Positions 56,426 to 64,000 of a stretch of 64,000 nucleotides of DNA are shown here, in pieces. Numbering within the stretch: position 1 is the first letter of the stretch; the number at the start of each line of letters is the position of its first letter. The notes under the pieces were generated by a model. The model made no database searches, was not told the DNA's origin, and saw only the letters and a list, made by a program, of their open reading frames with translations. The stretch covers positions 185,751-249,750 of the forward strand of contig JAHPZE010000005.1 in assembly GCA_019058365.1 (NCBI GenBank). Reading direction: 5' to 3'. Made by a program: the position numbers and the translations under genes. The DNA is from Promethearchaeota archaeon (lineage in GTDB: Archaea > Asgardarchaeota > Lokiarchaeia > Sigyniarchaeales > SOKP01).

Positions 56426-56631
56426 TATATTCTTTCACACTATTCTATTTTATTCTTAAATAAAAGGAAAATTACTTTATCTATTATTCACATTTCTTCT
56501 TCCATAAGAAATTATACTTCTAAATTCATTTTCAAATGAAATTTTATATTACTTCTTTTTAATTTTAGAATTATTCTGGAAGAATATTACTAAGAGTTTA
56601 TATAAAGAAAAAAATTAAATACAATTTTCAA

Positions 56632-57240
56632 TTAATTTGATAAACATTTGATAAATTTAGAAGTTAAACCAATTTTATTCCGGGTTCTATGGAAGGCGTA
56701 GGCAGAACAACTACACAACGCTCTCAAATTTGACTGAATTATTTTTTGAGGTTCACTTTTGTCAAGTAAATCAGTTATAAATATCACAATTGTTAATTGA
56801 GTCATTAGTTGCGGCCAAAAAAATAACATATCTAATTTTTCTTTTAATCTTCGAGCATTTTCTTTTGCTCGTTTGTAATCGAACACCGGTGCTAATCGAT
56901 AAAATCTATGTAAAATGATGTTAATAAATTGGTTTTGATCTCTAGCATGAAGTACATTTGGATTTTTATTGATAAATTTTCTGAAATTTAACAGACCTAC
57001 TAAAAATTCACTGATAACCTTATGAACAAGTTTAATTGGAATGGTTAAGGCTTCACTTATATGGACACTTTCGGAAGCTGTTAATGTTCTTACTTTTTCT
57101 CTAATTGTTAAAAAAGAAACATTCCGGAATAAGTAATTTAATACAATTGGCTTTAATTTGTTCTGAAATTTATAATACTTATTATAATAATCATTAATAC
57201 TGTCTACTTCGAAAGATTCCTTTTTTAACGTTTGAGTCAT
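56632..57240 (-). CDS. Hypothetical helical protein (C-terminus reminiscent of a TFIIB cyclin-fold HTH)
   Basis: PQLMTQLTIVIFI...IIQSNLRALCSCSAYAFHRTR. The fold assignment is weak. Confidence 0.5.
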   Translation of the reverse strand: MTQTLKKESFEVDSINDYYNKYYKFQNKLKPIVLNYLFRNVSFLTIREKVRTLTASESVHISEALTIPIKLVHKVISEFLVGLLNFRKFINKNPNVLHARDQNQFINIILHRFYRLAPVFDYKRAKENARRLKEKLDMLFFWPQLMTQLTIVIFITDLLDKSEPQKIIQSNLRALCSCSAYAFHRTRNKIGLTSKFIKCLSN

Positions 57241-57346
57241 GATTTCCTCAATATTTCAATTAAATCTTAATAAATGTTTATAACAAGTGTATTTAAACAA
57301 AAAATAAGTGTAAGTGCTAAAGGCTTTTCATATTAAAAGAAAAAAT

Positions 57347-58441
57347 TTAGAGAAGATGATCTAATGTAATTTGGAGTTTTCGCGATTTTTGTCTCTGATG
57401 GATAAAAAATTCCCTAGAAGTAGTATAATTTTTTTCAAACATATCCAAGTTTTTCTCAACACGTTCTTTATTGAGATAATGTTCTTCACATAATAAAGAT
57501 AATACTCTTGCTTTATTTGCTGGATTCCAAAATATATTGTCAATTTGTTCATTTATATCAGGAAACAAAAATATTTTTCTCACTTTTTTTATTATAACAG
57601 GATTTAACTCACTAAAATCGTAATTATTATATTCTTTTAGAATAAGGGTCTCAATGGATTTGTATTTTCGAATAAGTTGTAATGCTTTTTTTGATCCAAT
57701 ACCATCAATCCCTGGAAAATAATCGATACCAACTAATATCCCAATATCAATAAGTTGAAAAATTGAAATCCCTAAATTCTTTAAATTCTTCTGTAAATCA
57801 ATTGAGACTGGTTGTATCTTTTGGTATCTCCATTTTCCCTGAATTTTCCTTTTTAACGATTTCGAGAGATTTTGAATAACATAAGGGCATCCAAATAAGA
57901 GTGAATCGAAATCTTGGGAATTTGAGAAATTTGCGATTTTTTGTTTTACTAAGAATGCACATTGAGATTCTGCCGAAGCGGGAGAATCTATATAAGGAAT
58001 ACCCAAAGCCCCCAGAAGTTGTTTGGATTCTTCCATTATATTCTGCCACATATATTCTTTACTTAAGGCAATTTGTCTTGCTAAATCTCTATCATTCTTT
58101 CTTAAAGCTTGCTTATACCATTTTTGAATAAAAAGAAAATCTTTAAGTTGATCTTTTGTAATCACTTTTTTCAGTACAGAAACTTTTCCATCAAAACAAA
58201 AAATAGGAAATATTCTCTTACTATAATAAAAATTCACTCGATACAACAAACCATATAAGTGTGATATTGGTCGCTGAGTTCGGTCTAAAATTAATCCCGC
58301 GTCAGTTCCGTTTGAGCTTTTGCGCCTAAAGTTGAACAATCCCATTATGATATTCGGAGCATCAATCGCTATAATTTTACACTGTAAATCTTGATATTCA
58401 AGTTGCTTTCGAATTATAATGTTTTGAAGTTTAACTCCCAT
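57347..58441 (-). CDS. fen: Flap endonuclease 1
   Basis: MGVKL, IAIDA, ISHLYG, FDGK, SAESQCA, SQDFDSLLFG, GIDY.PGI.GIG and PIP-box-like QITLDHLL. Confidence 0.92.
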   Translation of the reverse strand: MGVKLQNIIIRKQLEYQDLQCKIIAIDAPNIIMGLFNFRRKSSNGTDAGLILDRTQRPISHLYGLLYRVNFYYSKRIFPIFCFDGKVSVLKKVITKDQLKDFLFIQKWYKQALRKNDRDLARQIALSKEYMWQNIMEESKQLLGALGIPYIDSPASAESQCAFLVKQKIANFSNSQDFDSLLFGCPYVIQNLSKSLKRKIQGKWRYQKIQPVSIDLQKNLKNLGISIFQLIDIGILVGIDYFPGIDGIGSKKALQLIRKYKSIETLILKEYNNYDFSELNPVIIKKVRKIFLFPDINEQIDNIFWNPANKARVLSLLCEEHYLNKERVEKNLDMFEKNYTTSREFFIHQRQKSRKLQITLDHLL

Positions 58442-58650
58442 GATTAAGAAATCTACCTCGTGTAAATATAAAAAGAAAAAATGAATTTTAAAATTAAATT
58501 ACCATCCCTTTATGAGATGATATAATCGAAAAAAGATTGTAAAGATATTTAACTTCTTCAGTTTCATAGTTCACCTATTATATATTTTTAAAGGTGAACA
58601 ATTGATTGCATGAGAATATATAAATAAAAAATTGAGATTATAAAAAGGGG

Positions 58651-58893
58651 TTATTTATTAATATCGTCTTTGAGTGATTTTAAAAAAGCTTTACGTATTT
58701 TTTTATCTTTAAGCTCATCAAATGCATCCACAACGCCACTTAATTCTTCCTCTGCTAGAATATTTTCATCTTCGATGTCACTCTCAAGATCTTCAATAAA
58801 AAAGTTCAAGTGACATTGATTACATTCAATATGATCATCATATACGATGACATCTTCCGATTTACAACTTGGACAGTAATATTCTGAAGGCAT
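58651..58893 (-). CDS. Small Zn-ribbon protein, paralog of 50052..50312 (start probably MPSEYYC; ORF track start 58977)
   Basis: YYCPSC...IECNQC, ENILAEEEL and LKDKKIRKAFLKS. Confidence 0.8.
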   Translation of the reverse strand: MPSEYYCPSCKSEDVIVYDDHIECNQCHLNFFIEDLESDIEDENILAEEELSGVVDAFDELKDKKIRKAFLKSLKDDINK

Positions 58894-59225
58894 TCTAAGT
58901 ATGAATATTATACAAAACTGGATAGTTACTAATATTATTATAACTAAGAATTTAAAATTATCATTACAAACAATCATAAAGCTTAAAAAGGGGAATTTGA
59001 TGGGAATTTTTTCTCACCTTCTAAAACAGATTAATTTTTAGAATTATTTCATCTTTTTAAATAAAAATCGAATTTTGAGAAGATGGCTTTTTTCTTTAAA
59101 AATATGTGAAGAAATTATTTTATAAAATTAGTACATAAAAGTGGTGAAACATCATCTCTAAAAAAAGATATTATGACTCAATTGAAGTATTATATGATCG
59201 AAAGGCAACGTCACGAACATTAATA

Positions 59226-59540
59226 ATGATTATTTTTGGGATTGCTATATTTATACTTATATTTTTTCCATTCTATGGTTTTACTCTCAGATTTCATTTA
59301 GGATATATAACGAATAAAATTTTTGATACAATTGGGAGATTTTCTTTAATAGGGGGAGTATTTTTAATAACATTATGTATTATCAGTCTAATTTTAGGAA
59401 AAAAGATTAGAGTGGGGTGGTTTATCGTGGCAATAGTGTTGCTATGGGTAGGATGTTGGTGTACAGGAATAGTTCTTGACATCTGGGGATTTACTATTGG
59501 CAATCCTCAAAATACTGGAGGAGGAAGTGGATATTACTAA
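59226..59540 (+). CDS. Three-TM membrane protein (open frame extends upstream to 59148)
   Basis: Hydrophobic helices and a Gly-rich tail. Confidence 0.7.
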   Translation: MIIFGIAIFILIFFPFYGFTLRFHLGYITNKIFDTIGRFSLIGGVFLITLCIISLILGKKIRVGWFIVAIVLLWVGCWCTGIVLDIWGFTIGNPQNTGGGSGYY

Positions 59541-59595
59541 TTAAGTTCAAAAAAGCAATTATATTTGGTTTTTATTATATTTATTATTCACGATA

Positions 59596-59913
59596 TCAAT
59601 AAATTCGAAAATATCTCAATCCTGTATTGATCCCGCAGACTGTTAGTAGAACAATTGAGACTACCACAACACCTATCATTTTATGGCGCTGAAATTGTCC
59701 TAAAAATAGCCATCCAAGAATCCCAATAATCAATCCAAGCAGTCCGATTATTGAACCTATTGCCAATAGAAATTTAATTGCTTCTCCTATCTGATCAAAA
59801 TAATCAAACATCATTATACTACTTAATAGGAGCCTATATTTATAAATAAAAAAACAAAGGGTTGATTTTTTTTCTTTAAATATTTGAGATTTACTTAATG
59901 TGTAAACAATCAA
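59596..59913 (-). CDS. Small two-TM membrane protein (start probably MMFDYF)
   Basis: Two hydrophobic helices separated by QFQRHK. Confidence 0.65.
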   Translation of the reverse strand: MIVYTLSKSQIFKEKKSTLCFFIYKYRLLLSSIMMFDYFDQIGEAIKFLLAIGSIIGLLGLIIGILGWLFLGQFQRHKMIGVVVVSIVLLTVCGINTGLRYFRIY

Positions 59914-59931
59914 ATATCTTGTAGATCTCGT

Positions 59932-60249
59932 ATGAGAAAACTATATGAAATTGGAATTTGCCCTAATTGTGATTGTACTATTTCAATTTTTAAAACTCAA
60001 AATTTTAAACGGTTTGCTAAATGTGAAATCTGTGGACTGTCTTATACTTTACCAAAAAGAGGGTCGATTTCTAACTCAGCTTTAATTTGTTCAAAAAATA
60101 ATTTTCCGTTATTAATCATTGAAAGACAACTTCAACCTGCTTACTTTTGGACAGATGGTCCATGTTTTAGCTGTGTAAAATATGATAAATGTGAAAATGT
60201 GAAAGAATTAATTACTGAATTTAAAGAACTAAAGGTGTATGGGTATTAA
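59932..60249 (+). CDS. Cys-rich Zn-ribbon protein
   Basis: CPNC, CEIC, CSKN and PCFSC...KC. Confidence 0.75.
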   Translation: MRKLYEIGICPNCDCTISIFKTQNFKRFAKCEICGLSYTLPKRGSISNSALICSKNNFPLLIIERQLQPAYFWTDGPCFSCVKYDKCENVKELITEFKELKVYGY

Positions 60250-61306
60250 GAAGGTAATGTCTATAAAAAATTCTAAGATTGTAATAATACTATTTATAAT
60301 TATATCTTTCATCTCGCCAACAATTCTCACTAATTCTATTAGAAACTTTAGTCTTAAAAACAGAGAATCTGTTGAGAAACTACAACCACGTATGAGTGAC
60401 GGTGAAAAGTTAGTGGATAAAGTTTTTAACTTTACAACTGACAGAGATTATGTGACCTTCTCTAATAATATCTATTTCATTAAACCATATATCTATTATA
60501 TCTCATTTCAAATCGTGACACCTCATGAATGTGATATGAATATTTCTTTATGGGACCCTGAAGGTGATATATATGATATTTATGATAGTCGTCCGAATAC
60601 AACTCTGCTAACACAATTCGAATATCAAGAGATCCCCTTCGGAGTTGCTCTAACTGGAAATTATACAATAAAATTCCAAGCTCATCTCACAGAAAATCTT
60701 AATATTCATATCAAAATTATAAATAGTGACTTACAATGTCTTCAAGATGTCATTGAGCCATCAGCTTTTAACAATAAAATTTTTTATCAAGCAAATAAGT
60801 TTAAAAATGGGGGGAATAACCCATTGCATAATGTAACTCTTAAAACGGATACTCTCTATAGATTCTACTTTGGACGATATTCCCCTATAGCAGATCTAGC
60901 TCAGAGTGAGACAAGAATCTACTTTAATATAACATCCTCTATTGATATTCAATATAAAATCTATATAAATAAAACATTACTAGGTGTTTGTCAAATAGAA
61001 TTCTTTGATTTTGGAACTGCCGTCGATGGTGTTTATATTATTAATATGACAATTTATTGTATGGTATCTTGTGTAAATATTGCATATGCAATTGTAGAGG
61101 AAAGTAAAATTGCAGATGGTACTGATCCAAACGATCCCGATCCTCCACCTGATGATCCTGTGAATAATACTAAAAGTGGAATCGAAGTTAGTATTCCCGT
61201 CGAATTCACTGTCGGAACATTAGCATTCATAGGATGTATCGTAAGCATACCAATTATAATTGTAGTGTATCAAAAACGAAAAAATCTATCAGGATTGAGT
61301 AATTAA
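60239..61306 (+). CDS. Secreted/surface protein with a C-terminal membrane anchor
   Basis: N-terminal signal-like segment, two beta-rich domains, a DPNDPDPPPDDP linker, then a TM helix and basic tail. Confidence 0.75.
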   Translation: MGIKKVMSIKNSKIVIILFIIISFISPTILTNSIRNFSLKNRESVEKLQPRMSDGEKLVDKVFNFTTDRDYVTFSNNIYFIKPYIYYISFQIVTPHECDMNISLWDPEGDIYDIYDSRPNTTLLTQFEYQEIPFGVALTGNYTIKFQAHLTENLNIHIKIINSDLQCLQDVIEPSAFNNKIFYQANKFKNGGNNPLHNVTLKTDTLYRFYFGRYSPIADLAQSETRIYFNITSSIDIQYKIYINKTLLGVCQIEFFDFGTAVDGVYIINMTIYCMVSCVNIAYAIVEESKIADGTDPNDPDPPPDDPVNNTKSGIEVSIPVEFTVGTLAFIGCIVSIPIIIVVYQKRKNLSGLSN

Positions 61307-61414
61307 ATATAAATTAAAAAAATAAATTTCCTCCGCTTCTCAAGGAAATTGAAGACATCATAAAGAGGGGAATAGAAAAATAGAAAGAAATTGAGTGGAT
61401 ATGAACATAGATGA

Positions 61415-61795
61415 TTAAACTTTGCCATTCAATTTCAGGGCCGTATTCTGGATGTTGAATAAAGAATTGCTGGGATCTGCTTTAGGCATGATATAACACA
61501 CAAGTATCCCTCCCTTAAATGGAGCTAACACAACATGCCCATTCCCTGCATTGTTTGTTCCTATTATAGCTTCAGGAGTATTATAAATCACCGCAAAATC
61601 CACTCCCATTAAATTGAGGGAGTTTCTACCCTTGAGTGCATTCAGAACAGTCTTTGATTCGTTGGTTAAATCCCAATTAGCACCTTTTTGATAAATAATT
61701 TTCCCTTTACTCGACATAACGGAAACAGCAGCTACTTTATACCACTCGAGTTCCACTAATTCATCAATGATCTTTTCAACGTCAGTAATTACCAT
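61415..61795 (-). CDS. Asgard (Loki-type) profilin
   Basis: IIDELV...GKIIYQ..NWDL...IIGTNNAGNGHVVLAP...YIMPKADP..SLFNIQ matches Lokiarchaeal profilins. Confidence 0.85.
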   Translation of the reverse strand: MVITDVEKIIDELVELEWYKVAAVSVMSSKGKIIYQKGANWDLTNESKTVLNALKGRNSLNLMGVDFAVIYNTPEAIIGTNNAGNGHVVLAPFKGGILVCYIMPKADPSNSLFNIQNTALKLNGKV

Positions 61796-61901
61796 TTGTA
61801 ATTAACTCAAGGTTATCATCGTTTTTAAACCTATTATAAATAAAATGTAGCGAAATTCAATGGATTTAAATTAAGAAAAAATCTTTTAGAAATTCTTCTT
61901 A

Positions 61902-62405
61902 CTACCTAACATTCCACTGCATTGCACACTCTCCAACTCCACCTTTCTGGACACCTTCAAATCGAAGGTTTCTAAAACCAAACTTCCTTTTTACCTTAGA
62001 TAAAATTCCCATCATGACCTGGGGAAACATACAAGCTGGACTCCCAAAATCATGGTACCTATAATATGTATTAGCAAAACACATTTTACAACTGTCTTGG
62101 TAAGCAAAAATCTTTAATACATTTCCTTTTTCATCTATTTTAACATCTACTTTCGCATTATCTGTGATTGCCCATTCCTGCTCCAAAAATTCCCGTAATC
62201 TTCGTAAAAAATCATCAATAGTCTCGATACCATCCTCATTGAATTCTTTTCCAATAGTCCGCCCTATTTTCGTTAAAATCTCATCCTTTTTGTCAGCAGG
62301 AAGAGCTTTCTGTAAGGCATACCACAGTTTAAAAAAGGTGCCATAAGAAACCGTATCAAATTTAGTTGGTAAGGCATTAACCTCATCTTTCGTTAAAGTT
62401 CCCAT
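61902..62405 (-). CDS. V4R/Bet3-like fold protein
   Basis: ILTKIGRTIG helix, plus CKMC, ACMFP...GIL and terminal GEC as candidate ligands. Confidence 0.6.
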   Translation of the reverse strand: MGTLTKDEVNALPTKFDTVSYGTFFKLWYALQKALPADKKDEILTKIGRTIGKEFNEDGIETIDDFLRRLREFLEQEWAITDNAKVDVKIDEKGNVLKIFAYQDSCKMCFANTYYRYHDFGSPACMFPQVMMGILSKVKRKFGFRNLRFEGVQKGGVGECAMQWNVR

Positions 62406-62598
62406 TCTTATATATCACATTAAATTTTTAATTTATTTATTTAGATGATAAGAAGATCAAATCTTAAGGGTTCTGATTATTTAATATTAAAATTTATGGC
62501 TAAATGATTAAAAATATTGTGTATCTCTAACTGATTTTTTATGGTTTGAAAATCAAACAATTTTTAAAAAATTTTAATAAAATTAAAAAAAATTAGAT

Positions 62599-63868
62599 TT
62601 AAGAATTCATTAATGCTTTTGCATTATTTTGCCAATCGTTAATTGTCTTTGCTGAAGCTCCTGAGATACTTGCTGAAAGTTCCTCTGGATCTGCTGATAA
62701 TAAATCTGAAATTGTTTTTATCCCCTGAGAGTTTAAATTCTCTACTGCTCCCTTTCCGATACCTTTCACTTGAATTAAAGGAACTTCTTCACTTGATTGT
62801 TGATTCGAAGCGTCATTAGATTCTTGTTTTTCATCATCTTCATATAAAGTTTCAACTTCAAAGTCTAATCCTGGCGATTCAGGAGGTTCTACTTTATCTG
62901 TGTCAGCAACTCCTGCTCCTGTAATATAGAACTCTGCTTCTTCTGGTGGCAAATCTGGGGCATCTACTATTACAGCTCTACGTTTCAATGAATTATTAGA
63001 AGAAAATCCTTTTGTTTTAAACATGACACGAAAGTGGCATCCGTGTGCTACTATTTAGAAGTGATTTATGAAATATAAAATCACAATTCCCTCCTATCGC
63101 GTCATCAGCTGAAAACATTCCCATCATTTTGGTGGCGACTTGATTTGTCAATAAAACAGCGCAATTATAAGTTTCTGCAATACGGGATAATCCATGAATC
63201 ATATTATTTAGAGCTGCTTGTCGAGGCGCCAGTTTTCCGATTCCAATATATTCTGCCCTCAATAATGCCATTAAGCTGTCAATTACTATGAGTCGCACAT
63301 TTCGAGTCTTACAGAGTGTTTCTGCTTTTTGAATCATTTGAGATTGATGATCTGAAGAATAGATTCTGGCATGAAATATTTTTGAAAGCACATCCTTAGG
63401 ATTCAATTCAAATCTTTTGGCAATTCGTTTAATCTTCTCTTTTGAAAAGGTATTTTCAGTATCAATGTAGGCGACAGAACCACTAATTCCCTCCCTCCTC
63501 TCTGGTAATTGCACTGTAACTGATAACGTGTGAGCCAATGCTGTTTTTCCAGACTTAAATGGTCCATACACTTCTGTTAGTTTTCCAGTTTGAAATCCTC
63601 CTCCTAAGATGCAATTTAGTTCCGCAGAACCGGTTGTAAAATATTCGACATTTTCATCAATCTTAGCCGCAGGAGTAAAATCAGTCATACCTAGTGCGTT
63701 TCTTGCATTCCAGATGAGTTTTTTAGCAGTCTTATCACCTAATCCATCAATTGTAGCAACAGTTGAATGAGGACTCATTGCTAAAGCTTCTGCTGTGCTT
63801 ATACCATTCTCTTGTAGTAGTTTTATCTGGCGTGAGTTAATTCCTTTTACTTGATCTAAATCTGCCAT
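62599..63868 (-). CDS. radA: RadA-family recombinase, join(63086..63868, 62599..63054), 412 aa, with C-terminal acidic linker and extra HhH domain
   Basis: N-terminal HhH domain, GPFKSGKT, YIDTENTF, IDSLMALLRAEY and TNQV. Removing 63055-63085 gives IGGN|IVAHGCHFRVMFK...DAPDLP...EFYIT..GV.D. Confidence 0.9.
63055..63085 (-). other. Putative 31-nt bulge-helix-bulge mRNA intron in radA
   Basis: GGGA-AU^U-GUGAUUU...AAAUCAC-UUCU-AA^A. The canonical cut positions coincide with the boundaries needed to restore the protein. Confidence 0.8.
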
Positions 63869-64000
63869 TCTTTTTTATATCAACTCTTTTTAGGTAATTT
63901 TGTTGAATTTGATATACAACTAAGATTATTTAAAGAAAAAAAAGCGATTAGCTACAAAATTCAGTGATTTGAAGACCACTTGGTATTAAATTGTATCCAA

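Follow-up and report, generated by a model that had tools for sequence, protein, structure and literature searches.

A radA paralogue in a Lokiarchaeia genome is interrupted by a 31-nt insert that, with a probability of about 90%, is a cbf5-like intron of the HBh' type, removed from the mRNA by splicing. On every feature that can be tested from sequence, the insert fits the introns spliced by the tRNA-splicing endonuclease EndA, and the radA mRNA very probably requires cutting and rejoining by the tRNA-splicing enzymes before it can encode a whole recombinase.

The gene occupies 1270 nt on the minus strand (63868..62599) of the 64,000-nt stretch of DNA that we analyzed (the window). It is one base out of frame and was called as two ORFs of 283 and 141 aa, whose matches to the RadA profile follow one another, the first spanning positions 5-270 and the second 270-315. 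Excision of 63055-63085 (minus strand) yields a single RadA ORF of 412 aa, the insert lying in phase 0 directly after codon 261 (Asn). The first-pass annotation had described two out-of-frame ORFs that a 31-nt deletion joins into 412 aa, and the sequence, coordinates and frames are as it gave them. Among the excisions of 3n+1 nt (1-40 nt) tested near the site, two restore GGN-x-x-AH, and only the register 63055-63085 gives GGNIVAH; shifting the excision by +1 gives GGNLVAH instead. Ile follows the Asn in 21 of 21 congeneric intronless orthologues, whose full-length identity is 76-88%, which matches this register. The same annotation had placed the boundaries deduced from the protein at the EndA cut sites AU^U and AA^A, and the unique motif-restoring register does coincide with them.

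Exon 1 (63086..63868, minus strand) comprises codons 1-261 and encodes the N-terminal HhH, the ATPase core with the Walker A sequence GPFKSGKT, and loops L1 and L2 up to GGN; it matches NCBIfam PRK04301 (E=1.5e-80) and is 81-94% identical to congeneric orthologues. The putative 31-nt, phase 0 intron (63055..63085, minus strand) separates it from exon 2 (62599..63054, minus strand), whose 151 codons encode the IVAH motif, the end of the ATPase core, an acidic linker and a second, C-terminal HhH. Translation of unspliced mRNA would stop at 63017..63019 (minus strand), giving a 283-aa product with a 22-aa junk tail. At the protein level, this tail shows no conservation (pN of 0.22 exceeding pS of 0.15), and its length among homologues varies from 1 to 43 aa.

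The insert and its flanks can form the HBh' geometry, in which the exon strand GGGA (63088..63091, minus strand, as are all structural elements given here) pairs with the intron strand UUCU (63057..63060) as a central helix, bordered by 3-nt bulges and an intron stem. EndA cuts each bulge on the 3' side of its second base. From the geometry and this rule, the cuts are predicted within the 5' bulge AU^U (63085..63087) and the 3' bulge AA^A (63054..63056), the latter nearly invariant among homologues. The intron hairpin h' (63061..63084) was delimited by per-pair covariation and column variability; covariation prefers a stem of 6 bp (63079-63084 with 63061-63066), a bulged base, 3 bp (63075-63077 with 63067-63069) and a 5-nt loop (63070-63074) that contains two nearly invariant U. 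Shuffled inserts reached the HBh' geometry in 0.11% of trials when a stem of at least 5 bp was required, and in 0.02% for at least 7 bp.

In the host copy, ViennaRNA places this fold about 3 kcal/mol above its predicted minimum when the flanks measure 8-15 nt and 5.5 kcal/mol above it when they measure 30 nt, with an ensemble probability of at most 0.006; across the family, the gap has a median of 0.7 kcal/mol, and in 49 of 57 homologues the fold lies within 2 kcal/mol of the minimum. The RNAalifold consensus has a 3-bp central helix, the first intron A being able to replace one pair in most relatives. The BHB-type fold proposed earlier can form, but it is not the predicted ground state of the host copy, and the stem register that covariation prefers differs slightly from the one proposed. 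The outer exon-exon helix amounts to 0-2 adjacent pairs, short of the strict hBHBh' motif, and outer-helix wobble pairing is not above that of intronless genes (22/57 vs 18/46 and 23/57 vs 15/46). The positions of this helix show no covariation. Since no selected exon-exon helix was found, we class the insert as HBh' and not as a strict BHB, in agreement with the weak outer helix and relaxed motif noted at first pass. An identity of the 5' arm as Box C/D RNA or K-turn was rejected, the arm having no box D and being fully paired.

We searched for homologues with a gapped pattern that fixes 9-12 exon-2 codons, so that conservation at these codons is partly by construction. The 31-nt insert was found at the exact radA site in 9 of 161 genomes of the class, that is, in the host and eight others from four genera (the host's included) of one family; one carrier, Loki_b32, is congeneric with the host, which on this basis is a member of Promethearchaeota (Lokiarchaeia). 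A further 65 metagenome contigs carry it (66 matches, with L075 a false one). The 57 distinct junctions comprise 54 inserts of 31 nt and three of 30 nt, the latter in frame and ending in or containing a stop.

Across the 54 junctions, the central helix is paired in 100% of cells, with double changes at one pair, and the whole structure in 93%, against 83% for shuffled inserts and 29-47% when the structure was slid; double-change cells number 92 versus 35. Helix h' is 90% paired, with double changes at six of its nine pairs. The third base of the exon strand is the wobble position of Gly260, and it covaries with its intron partner (A-U in 60 sequences, G-C in 10 and G·U in one, the host). A pyrimidine at this wobble position occurs in 0 of 71 intron-bearing sequences, compared with 25 of 55 intronless ones. 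On the tree, five intron pairs change 4-15 times, their 5' and 3' sides mostly together; the sequences are related, so the covariation counts are overstated, and the exon-intron G-C double change arose perhaps twice. G·U pairs interchange with Watson-Crick pairs, as fits an RNA, and the two loop U have minor-allele frequencies of 0-0.05 against a mean of 0.48 at nearby four-fold sites. Orthologue inserts with covarying stems had been proposed as a check on the intron reading, and the eight other genomes and 65 contigs, with their double changes in the stem, provide them. These patterns show selection on the RNA structure of the insert.

These homologues bear directly on two other explanations. 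The host is a metagenome-assembled genome with 6.6% contamination, and an exact copy of its junction had 0 matches among metagenome contigs, as would be expected if the insert were an assembly artefact. Diverged inserts at the same base recur, however, in dozens of independent assemblies, which excludes an artefact for the intron family and leaves it a negligible chance overall. Alternatively, the two reading frames might be joined by recoding in place of splicing, through a programmed frameshift, ribosome bypass, or a split gene that re-initiates at an internal ATG (63024); this ATG is codon 11 of exon 2 and overlaps the unspliced stop by 8 nt, and a hairpin can stimulate recoding. Yet frameshifting 31-nt inserts and in-frame, stop-ending 30-nt inserts share one site, there is no conserved slippery run, and in no copy does the insert end in a codon that matches AAY, the codon of take-off. 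The internal Met is also found in intronless genes, the spliced frame is preserved over the ten codons that precede it, and the exon-intron covariation is left without explanation, all of which makes recoding very improbable.

Constraint on the downstream exon was evaluated in the spliced frame, outside the search pattern. Exon 2 has an omega of 0.050, compared with 0.054 in intronless genes, and is open for 140-158 codons in essentially all copies not cut by a contig end; purifying selection on it is normal. Pseudogene-like decay of this exon, which the first-pass annotation had named as one outcome that would overturn its reading, is absent. A dead gene or a DNA-level element, such as a pseudogene, the scar of a MITE or an excising element, could have been favored by the dispensability of the paralogue, for which only some 22 of the 37 congeneric genomes give a strong match, and which stands beside two other intact RadA genes in the host genome. 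Exon 2 is nonetheless open at full length with the omega of intronless genes, the insert is flanked by no target-site duplication and recurs neither elsewhere in the host genome nor at any other locus in 151 genomes, and the interchange of G·U with Watson-Crick pairs points to RNA; these explanations are largely refuted and highly unlikely. The insert is too short to hold an ORF, and a covariance model matched the radA site only in the 151 genomes, with no relative in a tRNA gene and one weak, unconvincing match in another genome (G056, E=0.04). Because the model finds the radA site only, the intron is not a mobile element now.

The interrupted gene has the hallmarks of RadA, namely an N-terminal HhH, a RecA-fold core, Walker A and GGN-x-x-AH. 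Its variant Walker A and the extra C-terminal HhH that follows the acidic linker (62599-62800) mark it as an accessory, third RadA paralogue. When the protein is aligned to solved RadA/Rad51, its junction falls past loop L2 and within the GGN-IIAH motif. In RadA/Rad51, the motif's His makes contact with ATP at the interface of two subunits, and for this reason the unspliced 283-aa product should be inactive as a recombinase. Four protein clusters with 17-63 members each (P0139, P0063, P0121 and P0178) consist of truncated RadA that correspond to unspliced translations of the intron family. Among the protein matches, no spliced form with at least 99% identity was present. The closest full-length matches, at 96-98% identity, were considered as cDNA and rejected, since the three contigs examined were genomic, with flanking genes, and the matches are intronless alleles. 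One intronless orthologue (L108, G054:C56) contains scattered stops and is probably a decayed copy; an intron was rejected as their cause, the stops being scattered nonsense changes.

Sequence searches of the host genome identified two genes with an EndA domain and one RtcB. The first EndA (alpha) gives its best alignment to the catalytic subunit of Aeropyrum, keeps the Tyr, His and Lys residues and the loop lysine, and has a CSL-like loop. Enzymes with an L1/CSL loop cleave relaxed motifs and occur in Asgard archaea (PMC5829648). The host thus appears to possess a broad-specificity EndA together with RtcB. In the proposed mechanism, the last bases of exon 1 would pair with the 3' end of the intron to form the 4-bp helix beside the 3-nt bulge and the intron stem, an (alpha-beta)2 EndA would cut the pre-mRNA within each bulge, behind its second base, and RtcB would join the exons and probably circularize the intron, the joined exons then encoding the 412-aa protein. 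As anticipated at first pass, mRNA left unspliced would give a 283-aa protein that ends after L2 and includes neither the IVAH helix nor the last strands nor the C-terminal HhH. The earlier claim that this recombinase depends on splicing by EndA and RtcB draws strong support from the homologous inserts, the covariation, the selection on exon 2 and the enzymes, with splicing itself as the predicted step.

For the host genome, whose completeness is rated at 100%, ARAGORN reported only about 30 tRNAs, many of which look implausible or contain introns, a tally consistent with heavily interrupted tRNA genes; a relaxed ARAGORN catalogue of tRNA introns was swamped by false calls.

A similar insert interrupts another gene of the host. 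In rpo1N, a 30-nt, in-frame, stop-ending HBh' insert lies at contig C52:2085-2114 (plus strand), and inserts of 30-40 nt at the same site occur in 10 genomes of the family (nine besides the host). By inspection, the central helix is paired in all of them, the Gly wobble forming A-U, G-C, G·U or U·G. Their loops (AUUUA, AAUUA, AAUUC) often resemble that of radA. A genome scan for frameshifts that BHB excision would repair, proposed in the first-pass annotation, was performed by combining HBh' geometry with ORF repair. It recovered radA, rpo1N, an lsrF-like gene and a mutase small subunit, but its total of 18 was no higher than the 15-21 of the shifted controls, and the scan alone therefore carries no evidential weight. 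The candidates in the lsrF-like gene and the mutase small subunit lie on contigs C9 and C6, both on the minus strand. Most likely, the radA intron is one of several mRNA introns in the host lineage.

The closest known case is the intron of the cbf5 pre-mRNA, which is found in Desulfurococcales and Sulfolobales, measures 16-44 nt (PMC2738675) and was described in 2020 as the only archaeal coding example (PMC7714728). Like the cbf5 intron (PMC2738675), the radA intron (30-31 nt) is a short BHB-type intron within a conserved coding motif; the two also share an often relaxed motif, a host with a hetero-oligomeric EndA, secondary losses, and both frame-breaking and in-frame versions. They differ in gene and phylum, and cbf5 splicing has been demonstrated, whereas that of radA is predicted. 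Moreover, even alleles that are nearly identical can differ in having the radA intron, and its host carries introns of this kind in other genes. Non-canonical HBh' tRNA introns of Asgard archaea and Thermoproteales have the same motif class, enzymes and repeated gain or loss, but the radA intron lies in an mRNA, and its exon half is constrained via a synonymous codon position. A preprint on Asgard tRNA introns scored four central pairs plus an intron helix as canonical and made no mention of mRNA introns (bioRxiv 10.64898/2026.10.13.758758). In Haloferax, the mRNA of HVO_1309 is likewise processed by EndA, but its BHB intron lies in the 5'-UTR leader and not, as in radA, in the coding sequence (PMC7714728). 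Within the literature covered by our search, which took in few subscription journals, we found no report of Asgard mRNA introns or of a radA intron, and an EndA intron had been confirmed in no archaeal coding sequence other than cbf5. Together, the radA and rpo1N introns suggest that tRNA-type splicing of mRNA is recurrent in Lokiarchaeia, and the radA intron offers a cheap, direct test of the spread of introns from tRNA to protein genes in relatives of eukaryotes. Databases would hold many falsely truncated RadA proteins, and the split annotation of other Asgard genes may likewise conceal intact ones.

The distribution of the intron is patchy. Within the family, the junction is intronless in 65 genomes and intron-bearing in nine, an exon-only tree shows 14-15 switches between presence and absence of the intron, and the intron-bearing sequences are rejected as a monophyletic group (p-AU 5e-7). 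Some intronless alleles encode proteins 96-98% identical to those of intron-bearing ones. The intron sequences roughly track the gene tree, a pattern that fits inheritance with repeated precise loss; repeated transfer is a possible alternative. In one pair of contigs, an intronless allele (L189) differs from an intron-bearing one (L035) at 4 of 545 exon-1 bases; DNA identity is 99% up to a point 55 nt short of the junction and about 80% beyond it, a sharp switch that would reflect either a recombination event joining an intronless to an intron-bearing allele or chimeric assembly of the contig. In each of two genomes, the intron-bearing gene is present twice (L035 and L040 in G114; L039 and L041, plus one intronless copy, in G131), through either duplication or mixed bins.

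In animals, the XBP1 intron, like that of HAC1 in its excision by stress-activated Ire1 at two stem-loops, is removed with RtcB-type ligation, and the HAC1/XBP1 intron is conserved across its clade. The first-pass annotation had proposed a comparable DNA-repair switch for radA. Both introns are short and non-spliceosomal, and their removal changes the frame, but the radA intron has EndA-type geometry, is optional and shows no sign of regulation; clade-wide conservation fails for it, given the nine genomes with and 65 without, scattered on the tree. The rpo1N intron and the two intact RadA genes likewise tell against the proposal, as do the near-identical intronless alleles, and EndA is a housekeeping enzyme, in contrast to Ire1. 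The patchy presence and the rpo1N intron argue for routine splicing, so that the radA intron is most likely a tolerated, optional one, processed routinely and often lost or moved by allele recombination. The annotation had also placed the host in the lineage closest to eukaryotes; it belongs to Lokiarchaeia, and to our knowledge a different Asgard group is the nearest relative of eukaryotes.

Regulation would be an addition to splicing and not an alternative to it, conditional excision (with DNA damage or growth state) setting RadA output. This unlikely reading is favored by the conserved loop, whose two U are conserved beyond the known needs of EndA, and the intron persists across saturation of synonymous sites. 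The competing fold of the host copy could also be read in this sense, although it is not conserved among relatives. We regard it as unlikely, if conceivable, that Loki-type Asgard archaea run routine, multi-gene splicing of mRNA by the tRNA machinery while a factor bound to the radA loop makes splicing there conditional, as a prokaryotic regulated switch. The location of radA among RPA and FEN1/XPG genes with a common upstream motif has also been weighed in favor of such a switch. This TATA-like motif (63927..63941, minus strand, before radA), with 7 matches against 0.58 expected, is common to the neighboring genes, but it is independent of the intron, preceding intron-bearing (30/44) and intronless (39/49) orthologues alike. 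As a 15-mer with at most one mismatch, it occurs six times in the 7.4 kb at 56599-63941, which contain the RPA, FEN1/XPG and small Cys-rich genes and radA, and this region is possibly a DNA-repair regulon.
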